From positions 1 to 36,723 of the forward strand of contig CAZKLP010000004.1 of the NCBI GenBank assembly GCA_964553885.1: a DNA stretch of 36,723 nt. Direction: 5' to 3'. This DNA comes from an uncultured Candidatus Saccharibacteria bacterium. GTDB lineage: Bacteria > Patescibacteriota > Minisyncoccia > UBA10092. Both the position numbers and the translations under genes were made by a program. The number at the start of each line of letters is the position of its first letter. The stretch's first letter is position 1. The notes beneath the pieces are model-generated. The model was not told the DNA's origin, searched no databases, and saw only the letters and a program-made list of their open reading frames with translations. Shown piece by piece: positions 3,341-26,332 of the stretch.

Positions 3341-3462
3341 AAATAATTTTCCTCTAGATATTTTTTTTCCTTGTCTGCCATTTCATTCTCCACTCTTAAA
3401 TTGTTAAATATCAAGTCGTTAAAGTTAATATAAAATACTACGCTAGTAATAAATATGTTAAG

Positions 3463-3496
3463 TTATACTATAAAAACGATCGTTTTTATAGTATAA
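3463..3496. repeat. 34-bp perfect palindrome centred on CGATCG (site A)
   Basis: ttatactataaaaacga|tcgtttttatagtataa. Its first 23 nt are identical to 4127-4149. Confidence 0.9.
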
Positions 3497-3544
3497 GTAA
3501 AATTAAAATTTACCTTATATTCAACGTGGCAATCGCAACAGCAA

Positions 3545-4096
3545 TCACAAATAGAATTTTTGTTTAAGCCACTCGTCGCCTTCGATTTTTTGAGCTTCAA
3601 TAAAATTTATATAAGGGCCGACTTTAAAAATTTCTTCAATAAATTGAATTTCGCTAAGGCATGGATACGGATAAATAAATACGCTTTTCTGCAATTGATA
3701 AAATCCCAATTCTTTTAACTTCAAACGCAGAGCGTTGCGCGCGATTTTTTCGCCTTCCGGGATATCAAAGATTACAATCCGCCAAATGCCATCCCATTTT
3801 TTTGGTTTTTTGATCTCTAAACTATCAAGATTATATTTTAATAATTTTTCCCTGCCCTTTTCTAAAATAACTATTTTAGAAATTTCTCCATCTTCTTTAA
3901 AATCAATTAATCTGTCTCGTTTCATCGCTTTTATTGATTTTACAAAACTTTGTTTCTTGGTCTTAAACTTTTTAATTAACTTAATCAAGGGCCTAAACAT
4001 TTCGGCAGACCCTGGTAATACCATTACAGTGGTAATTACAAATCCAGCGCCTAGGACTAATAAAATTTGTTTTGTTAGTTCCCCTCTTTTATTCAT
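3545..4096 (-). CDS. PaaX/Cas2-like fold putative DNA-binding protein, paralog 1
   Basis: WDGIWRIVIFDIPEGEKIARNALRLKLKELGFYQLQKSVFIYPYP signature, with an N-terminal hydrophobic segment. TGA stop. Confidence 0.7.
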   Translation of the reverse strand: MNKRGELTKQILLVLGAGFVITTVMVLPGSAEMFRPLIKLIKKFKTKKQSFVKSIKAMKRDRLIDFKEDGEISKIVILEKGREKLLKYNLDSLEIKKPKKWDGIWRIVIFDIPEGEKIARNALRLKLKELGFYQLQKSVFIYPYPCLSEIQFIEEIFKVGPYINFIEAQKIEGDEWLKQKFYL

Positions 4097-4126
4097 ACCT
4101 TAAAATATTTATTTTATAATTCATGA

Positions 4127-4160
4127 TTATACTATAAAAACGATCGTTTAGTTAGTATAA
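4127..4160. repeat. Imperfect CGATCG-centred palindrome (site B), copy of site A
   Basis: ttatactataaaaacgatcgtttagttagtataa, 31 nt upstream of the paralog 1 ATG. It overlaps a minus-strand TATAAT. Confidence 0.9.
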
Positions 4161-4180
4161 ATTCAATTATTTATCTTTTA

Positions 4181-11036: not shown

Positions 11037-11040
11037 TATT

Positions 11041-11078
11041 TGTACCATAACCATTGCTATAGCATAAGTTAGGGTACA
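11041..11078. terminator. 38-nt hairpin after the hydrolase gene, with no T-run
   Basis: tgtaccataac..ttgctatagca..gttagggtaca. Its apex ttgctatagca is identical to the apex of the palindrome at 17037-17070. Confidence 0.35.
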
Positions 11079-11128
11079 ATGGAAAATTTCACATCAATAA
11101 ATTTCGTACAGAAAAAAACGGAAAAAAT

Positions 11129-16958: not shown

Positions 16959-17124
16959 AAAAAGACCAGATATAACTTTCCTTGCGCACTCGGTCGCCCA
17001 GCGGCGACCTCGCTGTCCGATGAAAACGTTTTATTAGCCTCAATTCCTTGCTATAGCAAGGAATTGAGGCGAAACCATGCTAAAACGCTTTCATAAGCTT
17101 CGGAAAGTTACATCTGGTCTTTTT
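16959..17124. other. 166-nt structured palindromic element (candidate sRNA or MITE)
   Basis: A 23-bp closing stem (22 of 23 paired) joins 16959-16981 to 17102-17124. Inside are the hairpin ggtcgcc-cagc-ggcgacc (16992-17009) and a 34-nt perfect palindrome (17037-17070). No ORF. Confidence 0.6.
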
Positions 17125-18772: not shown

Positions 18773-18808
18773 TTTTTCAGCCATAGGCGGATCAGCCTCT
18801 GGCTGAAA
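18773..18808 (+). repeat. GC-rich twin-hairpin mini-element, copy X (rplJ 3' end and rplJ-rplL spacer)
   Basis: tttttcagccataggcggatcagcctctggctgaaa. It matches the ddl copy at 32 of 36 positions by hand alignment. It contains the last five codons and the TGA stop of rplJ, read on the opposite strand. Confidence 0.85.
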
Positions 18809-19340
18809 ATTTACCTTTTATCTGAGTTAACACATTAATTAAATCGCGCGTATTGCCGAAAAGTACATTAACCAGTTCTATAAGAGGAGAAGCAATTATG
18901 CTAACAACGCGGCCGAGCAAAATTTCACGAGACGGCAGTTTTGCTATCTCTATAATTTCTGTTTTGTCATGCCAATTAAAACCTATAAAGCCGCCTAAAA
19001 TTTTTAACGCTTCATTTCCGCCCTTGGCGGCAATTTTTGAAAACTTGAAAATAGAACTGGCCGCCGGCACCGGATCGCCATAGCTGAAAACAACCCCCAC
19101 TTGCGTTTTTAATTTATCAAGATCAATACCTTTATAATCACCTAATTTTAAAACACGGCTTATCAATGTTTTTTTAGAAACTTTATACTCGGCGCCTATT
19201 TGTTTAAGCAAACGGCGCAATTCCATTGTTTTAGCAACGGAGAGTTTATTAAAATCAACCAAAATCGCCGCCTTGGCCCGGCTAAACTTGTCGGTTAAAT
19301 CTTTCAAAATATTATCTTTTTTTTCTCGCGTAATGGCCAT
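18792..19340 (-). CDS. rplJ: 50S ribosomal protein L10
   Basis: MAITREKKDNILKDLTDKFSRAKAAILVDFNKLSVAKTMELRRLL. Start trimmed to the ATG at 19340. Confidence 0.92.
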   Translation of the reverse strand: MAITREKKDNILKDLTDKFSRAKAAILVDFNKLSVAKTMELRRLLKQIGAEYKVSKKTLISRVLKLGDYKGIDLDKLKTQVGVVFSYGDPVPAASSIFKFSKIAAKGGNEALKILGGFIGFNWHDKTEIIEIAKLPSREILLGRVVSIIASPLIELVNVLFGNTRDLINVLTQIKGKFSARG

Positions 19341-22482: not shown

Positions 22483-23988
22483 CTAAATTATTTCAATATC
22501 ATGCGGCTTACTTTCTTCCCAAGCCGCTTGGCTCATGCGCACAAACTTACGATGGAAAGGTTTCTGTAAATCTTCAATTGTTGCCGCTCCGGCGTAAGTC
22601 ATTCCGGAGCGAAGGCCGCTTACTAAAGCGCCTAAAACGCGAATAAGAGGACCGCGGTAAGACACATGTCCGGTAACTCCTTCCGGTTGAATCATATCTT
22701 TAAGGCCAGATTTAATAAAATCATCCCCTTTGATACCAAGATTGACATTTAAAGAAGACATTCCCCGCACAACTTTAACTAACTTGCCATTATCATCAAT
22801 AATATCACCGGGACTTTCATCGGTGCCGGAAAATAAAGTGCCGATCATTACGGTTGAAGCGCCGCAAGCGATGGCAATTGAAATATCGCGAGGATAACGA
22901 ACTCCGCCGTCGGCAATAATCGGAATTCCATGTTTTTTCGCCTCGCGGGCACACTCCAAAATCGCCGAGACCTGCGGCACGCCAGCTCCAGCGATAATTC
23001 TTGTAGAACAAGTGGCGCCAGGACCAATGCCGATTTTTATACCATCAATACTTACGAGTTTGACGTAATCGCACACCGCTTCAAATGTGACGACGTTCCC
23101 AACAATAAGTTCGCATTTTGGAAAATTGGTTTTAATGGCTCTTGCTGTTTCTATTGGCTTTCTGGCGTGAGCATGAGCAACATCAAGAACTAAAACATCG
23201 GCGCCGGCAAGTAAAAGTTGATCTACGCGACCAAGCAAGCCGGCAACGCCTTTTTCAATACCGATAGCGGCGCCAACGCGCAGCCTGCCGTTTTCATCTT
23301 TTGTCGCGTCAGGAAAAGACGCGTAGCGAAACAAATCTTTTTTAGTCATCAGCCCAAGAAGTTCTCCGCGTTCGTTAATAAAAGGAAGTTTCCCCAAAAG
23401 CGGTTGTTCTTTGAAAACATGCTCGGCAAGTTTTTTGGCTTTTTTCTCGGTAAGCGAAATATTGTCTGTCTCTATAACGATAAGCTGTTCGCGGAGTTTC
23501 ATGTATTTGCCGACCATTTCGGAATCTTCCGCGTTTGCGATTTCATATTTTGTGATAAGGCCAAGAAATTTTTTAGAAATATCTGCATCGATAATAAGGA
23601 CGCTGTCAATCTGATGTTCCGTCATCAATTCGCGGGCGCGACTAACTGAATCGCCGGGGAAAAGCGTGTAAGGCCCCCTAATAAGACCTTCTTCGGCCGT
23701 TTTAACTTTTTTAACTTCTTCAACTTGCCTTTCAATATTCATATTTCTATGAATAATACCCATACCGCCGTATCGCGCCATGGCAATTGCCATTTTGCTT
23801 TCAGTAACGGTGTCCATATTGGCGCTTATAATCGGAATCGCCAACTTAATTTTAGCGGTAAGACGAGTCGCGGTTGTCGGCCCGCCTTCTTTTTCCGCCC
23901 GAGTCTCTAAATCCGAATATTGCGGTCTTAAACAAATATTTGAAAAAGTGAGGCCTTCTTTTATGAATTCGTCACGCCAATCGGGCAT
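22483..23988 (-). CDS. guaB: IMP dehydrogenase with a CBS pair
   Basis: GLTFSNICLRPQYSDL, CBS insert, catalytic loop GIGPGATCSTRIIAGAGVPQ. Start trimmed to the ATG at 23988, preceded by AAGGGG. Confidence 0.93.
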   Translation of the reverse strand: MPDWRDEFIKEGLTFSNICLRPQYSDLETRAEKEGGPTTATRLTAKIKLAIPIISANMDTVTESKMAIAMARYGGMGIIHRNMNIERQVEEVKKVKTAEEGLIRGPYTLFPGDSVSRARELMTEHQIDSVLIIDADISKKFLGLITKYEIANAEDSEMVGKYMKLREQLIVIETDNISLTEKKAKKLAEHVFKEQPLLGKLPFINERGELLGLMTKKDLFRYASFPDATKDENGRLRVGAAIGIEKGVAGLLGRVDQLLLAGADVLVLDVAHAHARKPIETARAIKTNFPKCELIVGNVVTFEAVCDYVKLVSIDGIKIGIGPGATCSTRIIAGAGVPQVSAILECAREAKKHGIPIIADGGVRYPRDISIAIACGASTVMIGTLFSGTDESPGDIIDDNGKLVKVVRGMSSLNVNLGIKGDDFIKSGLKDMIQPEGVTGHVSYRGPLIRVLGALVSGLRSGMTYAGAATIEDLQKPFHRKFVRMSQAAWEESKPHDIEII

Positions 23989-24431
23989 ACTATCCCCTTT
24001 CTTCCTTTGGATAACACCACTTCGTATCCTCCTTCTCCTTCCCATAACGCAAAACGAATCCAGATATTATTTTCTTTCTCTCTTGCCCATATATTTGGTT
24101 TGCAAATGCTTTTTGAATTGTAGAAAAGCGAAACGCAAAAAATTCCTTGTTCTATGTAATGAAGTATGGTTTTGCCGGTATCAACGATATCTTCCGCAAT
24201 AATGCTGCGCTTTGTCGGCGCTAGAAGCAGAGGTAGATCCAAGCGATAATGCAAACATACGGCGAAAACTGTTCCTCCGGCCGGGATACCGTAAACACCG
24301 TCAAAATAATAACCTAAAATAGGCACTATATTTTCCGGCTTTAATTTTTCAACAATTATGGGCAGATCTTCAAAAAAATCTTCAATTTCATAAACAACTT
24401 CCGCCACTCCGTTGTGAAAGCTTTCGTACAT
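23961..24431 (-). CDS. Purine phosphoribosyltransferase (Gpt/Hpt-like)
   Basis: PRPP loop SIIAEDIVDTGKTI and a C-terminal WIRFALWE resembling the Gpt WI.FPWE. GAGGAG SD. Overlaps guaB by 28 nt. Confidence 0.7.
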   Translation of the reverse strand: MYESFHNGVAEVVYEIEDFFEDLPIIVEKLKPENIVPILGYYFDGVYGIPAGGTVFAVCLHYRLDLPLLLAPTKRSIIAEDIVDTGKTILHYIEQGIFCVSLFYNSKSICKPNIWAREKENNIWIRFALWEGEGGYEVVLSKGRKGIVCPIGVTNS

Positions 24432-24474
24432 TTTCTCTCCTCATTTTTTAAAGATCTAAATTTAGAATTTAATA

Positions 24475-24502
24475 ACTATACCAAAAAATAAACTTTTTGC
24501 AA
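24475..24502 (-). promoter_or_regulatory. Possible promoter of the PRTase-guaB operon
   Basis: Minus strand reads TTGCAA, a 16-nt spacer, TATAGT, followed by a ~37-nt leader with GAGGAG. Confidence 0.4.
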
Positions 24503-24531
24503 TTTTTATAACTTTTACAATTTTTATAATT

Positions 24532-24555
24532 TTACCACTTAATTTCCGATCGGTT
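24532..24555. repeat. Left 24-bp inverted repeat (site C), CGATCG-containing
   Basis: ttaccacttaatttccgatcggtt is the exact reverse complement of 25265-25288. It is also part of a local imperfect palindrome. Confidence 0.9.
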
Positions 24556-24656
24556 ATTAAGTTGTTAAAAATTAAAATATACAATTAAAAGAAAAAGTGT
24601 AGTTTAAAAAATTAAAAAATTATTAGAGTACTTGCAATAAAAAATGTTCACGGTAC

Positions 24657-25190
24657 TTACAATAAATGGAATTTATTTTTAAGATCTAAATCAATATCCG
24701 TGTTTTTAACTCGCAAAAATCTGACATACGGCGAGAGATTGAAAATTTCAATTATAAAATCAATTTCATTTTTGCATTCGTAGGGATGAATAAATACGCT
24801 TTTTTGCACAGGATAAAATCCGAGTTCTTTTAATTTTTCAACCAACGCCACCCGTCCCCGTCTTTCATCTTCTGGAATATCAAAAATAACCAAGCGCCAA
24901 ATGCCGTCCCATATTATCGGTCTTTTTATCCGAATTTTGTCTAAATCATACTTTAAAATTCTCTTCTTCCCGCTGTCTGTTAAAATAATATTTACCGTTC
25001 CATCGCTACTTTCTTTGTAATCCACCATCTTTGACCGATACAATTCCCTTATCGCCCGTTTTAAATTTCTTTCATTGATTTTTTTTCACTCCTTGACCAT
25101 GCTTTTAACAATTCTAAAATAATGATCCGGCCTTCTTGTTAAACTCAAAGAAGCTCCTCCTATTAAGAGGAGCATAACTTTTTTAGACAT
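24657..25190 (-). pseudogene. PaaX/Cas2-like paralog 2, interrupted by an in-frame TGA
   Basis: The track ORF 24657..25043 (WDGIWRLVIFDIPEDERRGRVALVEKLKELGFYPVQKSVFIHPYE) continues upstream in frame as MSKKVMLLLIGGASLSLTRRPDHYFRIVKSMVKE-TGA-KKINERNLKRAIRELYRSK. The TGA is the complement of 25086-25088. Confidence 0.7.
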
Positions 25191-25237
25191 TGATCCCATC
25201 CGTTCCATATCTATAATTGTTTCGTATTTATAAAAAT

Positions 25238-25266
25238 AGTATATTTCAAAAATTACCACTTTGCAA
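25238..25266 (-). promoter_or_regulatory. Promoter of paralog 2, overlapped by palindrome site D
   Basis: Minus strand reads TTGCAA (25261-25266), a 17-nt spacer, TATACT (25238-25243). Confidence 0.5.
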
Positions 25267-25479
25267 CCGATCGGAAATTAAGTGGTAAATTACAAATATA
25301 ATAGAATTATTTTTAGTGAAAAGTTTGAAACGTTTTTGTATACGATAGGCATGCGCAAATCTTCTAAGCCATGTTCCTGTCGCATCGGAAGAAAGCGCCC
25401 AAATTAAATCCTGGTGTTGAACAAAAATTAACCGAAGAAGCTCTCGCAACAGCGCATTAGTCTTTTGCAGTTCGGTCAT
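25246..25479 (-). CDS. Doubtful small ORF (77 aa from the ATG at 25479)
   Basis: Only ORF evidence. The 3' end runs through palindrome site D. No recognisable family. Confidence 0.2.
   Translation of the reverse strand: MTELQKTNALLRELLRLIFVQHQDLIWALSSDATGTWLRRFAHAYRIQKRFKLFTKNNSIIFVIYHLISDRLQSGNF
25253..25288. repeat. Right inverted repeat / imperfect palindrome (site D), CGATCG-centred
   Basis: ttaccactttgcaaccgatcggaaattaagtggtaa. Its last 24 nt are the reverse complement of 24532-24555. Confidence 0.9.
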
Positions 25480-25552
25480 CAGATATCCCCCATTAGTATA
25501 TTTATTGAAAGAATAATAATTGTAATCAATCACATCAAACGCAATTAAATTG

Positions 25553-26332
25553 TCAAATCGTTTTTTGATGTTTCTTTCGCCATTCCTCCCGCCCATTATG
25601 GGCGAGGCTCGACTGGCGAGCTTCTCGCCAGGCGGCTATTTTTTTATGATTCCCGGAAAGAAGAACTTTTGGAACGGCGTATTTTTTATCGCGCTTGCCC
25701 CGCCCTGGCGATGACCATTTGAAAACTTCCGGACGGGTGTAAACCGGAACGCCAACTCCAAATCGCTTTTCTTCAAGCGATTCGTTTTTTCCCAAAACAC
25801 CGGTAATATGACGCGATACCGCGTCAATAACAACCATCGCCGGAAGTTCGCCTCCGGTAAGAACATATGGACCTATGGATATTTCACCAAAATTAAAACC
25901 TAAATTCTGAATAATTTTTTTAATCCTGTCATCAACTCCTTCGTAGTGGCCGGCAATCATTATTATATGATCATATTTTTTTGAGAGTTCTGTGGCCATT
26001 TTTGAATCAAATTGCTTTCCGGCCACTGAAAACAGCACAACCTTAATTCCTGCGGCCGCAGGAATTAAGGTTTGATTAGTTTTTCTTTTTAAATTATTTT
26101 TTCGTTTTAAAATTGAATAGAGCGCTTTTGCAAGCGGCTCGATTTTGAAAACCATCCCCGGACCGCCGCCGAAGGGTTTATCATCAACTTTATTGTGTTT
26201 ATCGGTTGAAAATTTTCTTAAATCAATAATATTTATATTTATCTTCCCGTTTTTTTGGGCGCGCCGAATTATACTCTCATTTAAATAAGATTCAAAAATT
26301 TTTGGGAAAATTGTTATAACGTCAAATTTCAT
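25553..26332 (-). CDS. trmD: tRNA (guanine37-N1)-methyltransferase TrmD
   Basis: MKFDVITIFPKIFESYL, DDKPFGGGPGMV, LTGGELPAMVVIDAV. Has an extra segment between the conserved blocks. Confidence 0.93.
   Translation of the reverse strand: MKFDVITIFPKIFESYLNESIIRRAQKNGKININIIDLRKFSTDKHNKVDDKPFGGGPGMVFKIEPLAKALYSILKRKNNLKRKTNQTLIPAAAGIKVVLFSVAGKQFDSKMATELSKKYDHIIMIAGHYEGVDDRIKKIIQNLGFNFGEISIGPYVLTGGELPAMVVIDAVSRHITGVLGKNESLEEKRFGVGVPVYTRPEVFKWSSPGRGKRDKKYAVPKVLLSGNHKKIAAWREARQSSLAHNGREEWRKKHQKTI
26039..26072. repeat. 34-bp perfect palindrome inside trmD (NotI-site centre)
   Basis: aaccttaattcctgcgg|ccgcaggaattaaggtt, translated as TLIPAAAGIKV in the trmD extra segment. Confidence 0.9.

Follow-up and report, generated by a model that had tools for sequence, protein, structure and literature searches.

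Why should a small gene lie between two matching copies of a long, partly palindromic sequence? This question is raised by a locus in the 36,723-nt stretch of contig CAZKLP010000004.1 analyzed here (the window), which comes from an uncultured Candidatus Saccharibacteria bacterium and carries two related genes, paralog 1 and paralog 2, each laid out as site, gene, site. Analysis of paralog 2 indicated that its product is a probable winged helix followed by a Cas2-like PaaX_M domain, lacking the C-terminal effector domain of PaaX, and we refer to such proteins as mini-PaaX. Our favored reading, to which we give a probability of about 65%, is a lineage-specific expansion of effector-less PaaX-type repressors, each autoregulated through a private, wide-spaced operator and controlling a few other promoters. 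The features on which this reading is built are as follows.

24657–25208, minus strand: paralog 2, a 183-codon mini-PaaX gene with one nonsense codon (PF20803, E 6e-21)
25250–25291, no strand: site B, the upstream site, a 42-bp three-part palindrome AAATTACCACTT-TGCAA-CCGATCGG-AAAT-TAAGTGGTAAATT; predicted operator of paralog 2
24529–24570, no strand: site A, the downstream site (TTTTACCACTTAATTTCCGATCGGTTATTAAGTTGTTAAA), 87 nt beyond the paralog 2 stop codon
25266–25238, minus strand: paralog 2 promoter, with -35 TTGCAA (25266–25261), 17-nt spacer and -10 TATACT (25243–25238)

A mini-PaaX gene between two three-part sites

The initial annotation had described a perfect 24-bp inverted repeat at 24532–24555 and 25265–25288. 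This repeat is real and is one nucleotide longer than claimed: the exact stretch covers 25 nt (24531–24555 versus 25265–25289, the latter contained in site B) and is part of a pair of arms, 24531–24565 and 25255–25289, that are 89% complementary across 35 nt. In thirty shuffles of the window, exact inverted repeats spanning up to 1 kb reached a maximum of 12–15 nt, and the chance expectation for a 24-mer inverted repeat is 3.7e-7. Both copies sit in local imperfect palindromes, as had also been noticed, centered on CCGATCGG at 24546–24553 and 25267–25274. Each copy proved to be the best arm of a site of approximately 42 bp that has three parts: the 8-bp core CCGATCGG, unpaired 4-nt spacers and outer arms of about 11 nt. 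The hexamer CGATCG occurs only four times in the window (9.0 expected), and all four occurrences are beside the two paralogs.

Paralog 2 and paralog 1 are 41% identical over their full length, and both are matched by PF20803, the central Cas2-like domain of PaaX (74.8 and 78.3 bits, respectively; cut-off 24). Cas2 models are barely passed, by the C-terminal half (TIGR01573, 26.4 bits, cut-off 24.5; PF09827, 23.9 bits, cut-off 23.8), and the full-length PaaX model TIGR02277 aligns partially, over the winged-helix and Cas2-like part, with 26–29 bits against a cut-off of 264.55; for paralog 1 this alignment spans model positions 22–152 (E 1e-6). Profile searches of the paralogs gave no match to PF07848 (PaaX_N) or PF08223 (PaaX_C), and the protein stops about 15 residues past the Cas2-like fold. 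In these Pfam and NCBIfam searches PaaX_M and Cas2 were the only matches, with no transposase or HUH domain. An AlphaFold2 model built from 52 sequences (50 database homologues and both window paralogs) shows three helices and two β-strands, as in a winged helix, followed by a β-α-β-β-α-β fold, with a mean predicted local distance difference test (pLDDT) score of 67. Its best Foldseek match is E. coli PaaX (8a39; E 6.6e-5, 139 columns, template modeling score 0.33), followed by Rv0674 and then by many Cas2/VapD structures. A sequence search of the PDB returned a marginal Cas2 match only, so that PaaX was reached through the fold search.

The likeness to Cas2 and VapD extends beyond these models, since D110, the Cas2-type β1 aspartate, and a QxSVF motif are invariant in the aligned family, and D110 lines up with the YDV motif in SSO8090, a Cas2-family RNase (PDB 3exc). 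The mini-PaaX domain differs in being fused to a DNA-binding domain and in occurring in a genome without cas1, as judged by a PF01867 search that was positive in 7 of 14 reference genomes. A true CRISPR Cas2 was rejected on this absence of cas1. A tandem-repeat scan of 24300–25400, which did not extend to a genome-wide array search, found no CRISPR array. At least 652 public homologues exist, all in Parcubacteria or Patescibacteria (including some Azambacteria), and databases call them hypothetical, "Cas2" (often "CRISPR-associated endonuclease Cas2") or "PaaX". No relatives were found on viral contigs in IMG/VR, and a phage origin was rejected for this reason.

PaaX (E. coli; PDB 8a39; TIGR02277) represses the paa catabolic genes and responds to phenylacetyl-CoA. 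The E. coli protein recognizes TGATTC-N27-GAATCA and, by occlusion, also represses the Px promoter of its own gene (PMC9493321). Both proteins have a Cas2-like central domain, preceded in PaaX by an N-terminal winged helix and in mini-PaaX by a probable one, and both would use a long operator: the PaaX half-sites are inverted and approximately 25–30 bp apart (PMC9493321), and here, on sequence grounds only, the arms lie at offsets 9–19 from the dyad of a site of about 40 bp. Autorepression by promoter occlusion, known for PaaX, is predicted here from the -35 element inside the site. The mini-PaaX proteins differ in their size (183 versus approximately 305–316 aa), in the missing effector-binding domain and in the extra conserved 8-bp palindromic core of the operator; furthermore, no paa genes lie within the window, the gene is bracketed by two sites, and several relatives have 6–13 paralogs per genome, each with private arms.

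The -35 element of paralog 2 lies directly 3′ of the core, and site B overlaps both this element and the spacer, as the initial annotation had proposed for a TTGCAA-N17-TATACT promoter. Site B and its embedded -35 are kept at the orthologous, syntenic loci of two congeners (G001 and G002), and the G002 orthologue of paralog 2 is 88% identical to it. More widely, 16 upstream flanks, every one of them from the paralog 2 clade, contain CGATCG-N-TTGxxx in gene orientation, as against two with the reverse orientation, and in this clade a -10-like hexamer follows the embedded TTGxxx by about 17 nt.

A mechanism is proposed in which the protein encoded between the two repeats would recognize both of them as copies of its operator. 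A dimer would occupy a site of approximately 40 bp with its Cas2-like pair over the 8-bp core CCGATCGG, and each winged helix would read one outer arm of about 11 nt, some 15 bp from the dyad. Protein bound at the upstream site would repress paralog 2, since this site overlaps both the -35 and the spacer of the paralog 2 promoter. The downstream copy, just upstream of the promoter of a phosphoribosyltransferase-like (PRTase) gene and guaB, could co-regulate that operon or cooperate with the upstream copy, and about ten further intergenic sites of the same type suggest a small regulon. The family may have grown by duplication of site-gene-site units, after which protein and arms would have diverged together to give each paralog a private code.

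Arms, cores and flanks across the family

The window belongs to a genome (G000) of 500 kb in 24 contigs that is 94% complete and contains 11 members of the family, about 2% of its genes. The closest relative of paralog 2 in this genome is 68% identical to it and the most distant approximately 33%. The census suggested by the initial annotation, of family flanks for paralog-specific palindromes, gave a uniform answer: all 11 paralogs have an upstream palindrome of roughly 36–44 bp, a second copy closely follows nearly all of the genes, and the arms are specific to the paralog. The second family locus in the window shows the same site-gene-site layout with different arms (TTATACTATAAAAACGATCGTTTTTATAGTATAA), in agreement with the earlier description.

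3545–4096, minus strand: paralog 1, an intact 183-aa mini-PaaX
3459–3500, no strand: downstream site of paralog 1, a perfect 34-bp palindrome with core ACGATCGT
4123–4164, no strand: upstream site of paralog 1, an imperfect copy 31 nt ahead of the paralog 1 ATG

CGATCG had been thought the only part that the sites share. It is indeed the core at both window paralogs; it is also only one of several cores, as CTATAG, CTCGAG and CATATG occur elsewhere, and the cores of the 11 paralogs in this genome are 6–8-bp palindromes of the CGATCG, CTATAG or CTCGAG type. A genome scan for the three-part design gave 51 sites, compared with 0–1 in shuffles. The three cores account for 36 of these 51, and 31 of the 36 are intergenic. 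Sites cluster by arm into groups that comprise the flanks of one paralog and one to several solitary copies. Pairing between the two halves is 1.0 at offsets 1–3 from the dyad (imposed by the scan) and approximately 0.9 at offset 4, falls to approximately 0.45 at offsets 5–8, which is nearly unpaired, and returns to 0.75–1.0 at offsets 9–19. This profile of core, unpaired spacer and arm therefore indicates a modular, protein-type site and not a continuous hairpin.

The same profile bears on the idea that the palindromes are structural hairpins of RNA or DNA (terminators or processing sites, for instance), which are unrelated to the protein and flank it as a by-product of their intergenic location. 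The genome does contain 66 long palindromes (0–1 in shuffles), several copies are found at convergent 3′ ends, and solitary perfect palindromes of 34–40 nt vary inside yet stay complementary (CTGA/TCAG, CTTG/CAAG, TTTG/CAAA), all of which a hairpin function would predict. However, it would not account for arms that are peculiar to each paralog, match on both flanks and co-vary with the protein, and offsets 5–8 would be paired in a hairpin. No T run follows site A, a terminator scan of 24350–25650 flags neither site, and the genuine GC-rich terminators belong to a class of their own. No Rfam match was obtained at E≤1, on which basis a known RNA family was rejected and which also speaks against the hairpin explanation as a whole. 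We regard it as very improbable.

Similar observations were made in relatives, where 6–13 copies of the gene occur in several genomes (0.4–0.8 Mb) that belong to the same family or class, and many others have none. We compared the 230-nt upstream flank with the 245-nt downstream flank of 62 family genes from 13 genomes, scoring the best shared 20-nt window, and used 412 other genes of G000 as controls. A match of at least 18/20 was found for 40 of the 62 family genes (65%) and 4 of the 412 controls (1%); at a threshold of at least 17/20 the figures were 55/62 (89%) and 21/412 (5%). Orthologues in different genera have different arms (for example AATTGCATGTT.., AATGCAGTTAT.. and AAATGACCGTT..), and arm similarity follows identity in the N-terminal winged-helix part of the protein (Mantel p=0.001): arms are common to 8 of 8 pairs with at least 80% N-terminal identity, to 21% of pairs at 70–80% and to no more than 6% in any lower bin. 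The suggestion that the specificity of the regulator and its operator have diverged together is thus borne out and generalizes beyond the two window paralogs, to 11 of 11 paralogs in this genome and to the 62 genes of the 13 genomes.

The orientation of the two flank copies is mixed, with a direct match better in about 16 genes and an inverted match better in about 8; therefore, the "inverted repeat" is a trait of the paralog 2 orthologue group and not of the family. This leaves the other suggestion of the initial annotation, a 757-bp mobile cassette with terminal inverted repeats, without support. A terminal-inverted-repeat transposon was rejected on the mixed orientation together with the lack of a target-site duplication, the lack of flank similarity beyond approximately 44 bp, and the fact that the other paralogs are at most 68% identical to paralog 2.

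The role of the downstream site is best considered together with the neighbors of paralog 2, which are trmD, the PRTase-like gene and guaB.

23961–24431, minus strand: small PRTase-like gene (weak PF00156 match, 19.2 bits, below the cut-off)
22483–24045, minus strand: guaB, IMP dehydrogenase (PF00478, E 1.7e-120)
24475–24502, minus strand: PRTase-guaB promoter, TTGCAA-N16-TATAGT with a TG extension
24495–24535, no strand: 18-nt tandem repeat, 2.4 copies, which duplicates the TTG(C/T)AAAA -35 region of the PRTase promoter

The PRTase-facing end of site A is approximately 26 nt upstream of the PRTase -35. The PRTase-guaB promoter is kept in two congeners, G002 and G003, and in the latter it abuts the trmD stop codon. 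Coupling of this operon to the regulator, as previously proposed, is plausible, since regulator and PRTase are also adjacent in G001 and on a metagenomic contig with different outer neighbors, and in G002 one additional gene separates them. Across the family, 35 of 53 loci have a co-directional next gene, with the downstream site approximately 50–140 nt before its start, and six downstream sites carry a -35 of their own.

These data also bear on a reading in which the site pair acts as one unit, so that a tetramer or two dimers bridge the sites and loop out the gene of about 700 bp or insulate it by roadblocks. Such coupling would account for the inheritance of the downstream copy along with the gene. 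In its favor, several loci whose next gene is convergent retain the downstream site, the two copies match each other even as arms diverge between orthologues, and the spacing of the sites is constant at gene length, with copies identical over 38 nt including the spacers in some relatives (L017). The looping repressors of the lac, gal and deo systems likewise rely on paired, matching operators, which are separated by a few hundred bp and of which one overlaps a promoter; the pair described here differs in bracketing the regulator gene itself and in being inherited as a unit across a paralog family. However, the 35 co-directional loci and the six downstream sites with their own -35 fit an ordinary second operator, and solitary sites would work without a partner. 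Bridging or insulation by a coupled pair seems to us unlikely.

Solitary sites and the points that weigh against regulation

Sites of the paralog 2 type follow the pattern AC[CA]ACTTAA-N3-CCGATCGG-N3-TTAAGT[TG]GT. This pattern is present in 11–12 copies in G000, three each in G001 and G002, one in G003 and none in nine other relatives, and a reversed-pattern control gave no copies in any genome. The description of the site as paralog-specific consequently needs qualification: the arms do differ by paralog, but the site is not private to the flanks of the gene. Copies are located upstream of a superoxide dismutase gene (a position kept in G002), on both sides of a peroxiredoxin/tRNA cluster and before ftsH. 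The copies in G000 share an asymmetric spacer (TTT..TTx), and their similarity stops after about 44 bp. One copy at a convergent junction (C12:7998) is missing from the orthologous junctions in G001 and G002, and at a further orthologous position (C12:3265) the site has TTGCAGGTT arms in G000 and ACAACTTAA arms around the same core in G001. In G003 the PRTase promoter directly follows trmD, with neither regulator nor site. Together, the differences among solitary copies and the empty G003 locus indicate gain or loss of whole cassettes and sites. Recombinational excision between the flanking sites found no support, as the empty G003 locus keeps no solo site.

Several of these observations, and some from the sections above, weigh against the repressor reading. 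The non-palindromic spacers are shared and the 11 copies of this genome compare with 1–3 in congeners, which copying would explain more easily than independent point mutation. Convergent gene pairs, between which a promoter would not be expected, enclose several solitary sites. Of the 53 family loci, 18 have a convergent next gene, and a downstream site persists in several of the 18; this site must therefore be more than a neighbor's operator. The promoter scan is by itself no better than shuffles (6 matches versus 5.8), the structural model is only of moderate confidence and least confident in the N-terminal helices, and this genome carries a probably inactivated version of the regulator that is expected to read the paralog 2-type sites.

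A selfish or recombination module could account for part of this. In such a module, comparable to repetitive extragenic palindromic (REP) sequences and their associated transposases (RAYT, TnpA_REP), targeting by the winged helix would bring a Cas2-fold nuclease onto palindromes extruded as hairpins or cruciforms, nicking or copying would disperse solitary palindromes and move the site-gene-site cassette, and regulation would be secondary. The excess of near-identical 44-bp copies with their asymmetric spacer, the convergent-junction copy without counterparts, the exchange of arms at C12:3265 and the loss of the whole cassette with both sites from G003 would all be expected, as would the invariant β1 aspartate and QxSVF motif and the recurrence of the module in a metagenomic relative, where a 114-aa reading frame, the regulator and the PRTase gene stand between different outer neighbors. 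REP/RAYT systems resemble the present one in that the gene is flanked by cognate short palindromes, each paralog with its own class, and in that further solitary copies occur in intergenic regions, including 3′ ends. The differences are the lack of a HUH/Y1 transposase fold, the low number of copies (2–12 per site type and not hundreds), the modular sites with unpaired spacers and the promoter -35 in the upstream site.

Several results argue against this kind of mobility. The profile search detected no transposase or HUH domain, no target-site duplication was seen, flank similarity does not continue past about 44 bp, and no genome contains a near-identical gene pair, the other paralogs ranging from 68% down to approximately 33% identity to paralog 2. 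In addition, the orthologue is syntenic in three congeners, the flanking copies are in mixed orientation, the unpaired 4-nt spacers would break any hairpin, IMG/VR holds no viral relatives, and G003 shows no solo site that excision between flanking sites would have left. We consider such a selfish module improbable. The related proposal that the proteins are not just repressors and also serve as maintenance or mobilization factors that nick or copy their own private palindromes of about 44 bp is similarly doubtful, even though it would account for the sites on both sides of the gene, the dispersed near-identical copies, the promoter-less copies at convergent junctions, the replacement of arm types at one locus between species and the gain or loss of whole cassettes.

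The autoregulated repressor remains our favored reading, and we found no description of the family or its layout in the searchable literature, in which coverage of subscription journals is limited; the family looks like an undescribed regulator family. Parcubacteria and other bacteria of the candidate phyla radiation are mostly uncultured, and to our knowledge their gene regulation is essentially unknown. Proteins that are publicly labeled "hypothetical" or mislabeled "Cas2" seem each to carry their own recognition code of about 40 bp beside the gene, and if they are repressors, regulons could be read from sequence by matching flank arms to solitary sites; the paralog 2-type sites lie beside superoxide dismutase, peroxiredoxin, FtsH and PRTase-guaB genes. 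The family would also provide many natural pairs of protein and DNA specificity, for use in studies of winged-helix specificity evolution or as orthogonal repressor/operator parts. If the elements are mobile instead, they would represent a novel class of Cas2-fold-based systems for propagating palindromes.

Some solitary sites do not fit a single paralog. Orphan sites with TTGCAGGTT arms occur in G000 at C10:10670 and C12:3265, and no paralog of this genome is flanked by such arms; cognate-looking regulators are present in G002, G004 and G008. Hybrid sites, with one paralog 2-type arm (ACCACTTAA) and one other arm (CTGATAATATGT) around the same core, were observed in G000 (C12:12396 and C5:25276), at L094:3084 and as the downstream site in G001, which suggests that half-sites are read independently or by heterodimers. 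Two further solitary sites are located in the window.

11039–11080, no strand: solitary site that carries the paralog C19 arms (GTACC..CTATAG..GGTAC) and lies 49 nt upstream of a Mur ligase gene
17033–17074, no strand: solitary site that carries the paralog C10b arms (CCTCAATTCC..CTATAG..) and lies upstream of mraZ

A nonsense codon in paralog 2 and minor observations

The reading frame of paralog 2 is interrupted, and a second, smaller frame upstream of it is damaged as well.

25088–25086, minus strand: in-frame TGA at codon 41, a conserved Trp position
25246–25479, minus strand: truncated remnant of a conserved small open reading frame (ORF), whose sequence departs from the conserved one past RIQKRF and continues into site B

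Tryptophan occupies codon 41 in at least 90% of the 52 aligned family proteins and in the three closest paralogs, and the orthologues have TGG. An alternative code in which TGA is read as tryptophan was rejected: the ORFs of the genome use TGA as an ordinary stop (TAA 312, TGA 69 and TAG 67 in 448 ORFs; paralog 1 itself ends in TGA), the sole tRNA-Trp has a CCA anticodon, and the genome has no suppressor tRNA. An assembly error is an unlikely source of the TGA; Logan contigs from two runs on different samples match at this codon, and these runs are possibly from the same study as the metagenome-assembled genome and contigs hide rare variants. The small ORF between trmD and the regulator has 59% amino acid identity in G001, encodes 114 aa in the metagenomic relative (starting MTELQKTN..) and at window positions 25246–25596 has no Pfam match. 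The change of TGG to TGA at a conserved tryptophan, together with the truncated small ORF upstream, indicates that paralog 2 was probably inactivated recently by this mutation or is at best expressed through leaky read-through. Leaky UGA read-through buffered by autoregulation may be an alternative to inactivation.

Two sequence features within and directly after the gene were also noted. A GC hairpin that resembles a terminator (GCTCCTCTTAATAGGAGGAGC followed by a T-rich tail) lies at 25153–25173 in the LLLIGGAS codons of paralog 2 and is probably a coding coincidence. Directly after the stop codon is a 25-nt tandem repeat in 2.2 copies (..GTACTTGCAATAAA.. / ..GTACTTACAATAAA..; window 24613–24666).

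Elsewhere in G000, an array of tandem repeats of about 24 nt (ATTTTAATATTACCTAGAAAGAT), partly N-masked, replaces the downstream palindrome of paralog C10a (C10:5700–5870). At C2:33099–33310, three palindromes with CTCGAG, CGATCG and CTATAG cores and different arms are stacked in a 370-bp intergenic region upstream of a gene for a 210-aa protein, which could reflect combinatorial control or an insertion hot spot. In G002 (L087), a GC-rich structured insert of approximately 170 bp, bounded by inverted repeats (AAAGAGATATATTT..), lies between an S1-domain gene and its convergent neighbor; G000 has an AT-rich stretch with a palindrome at this place and G001 has nothing, so that it looks like a variable intergenic hot spot. 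A separate palindrome family, TTTCCGCCAAAGGCGGATCCGCCTTTGGCGGAAA, forms a twin-hairpin element with at least nine copies in G000 (including C10:4279, C9:22727, C16:11722 and window 18774–18809), and two perfect or near-perfect palindromes of 48–52 nt and of yet another design (ATTGATGTCCGACATCAATAAT..) are found at C5:23644 and C6:26291.

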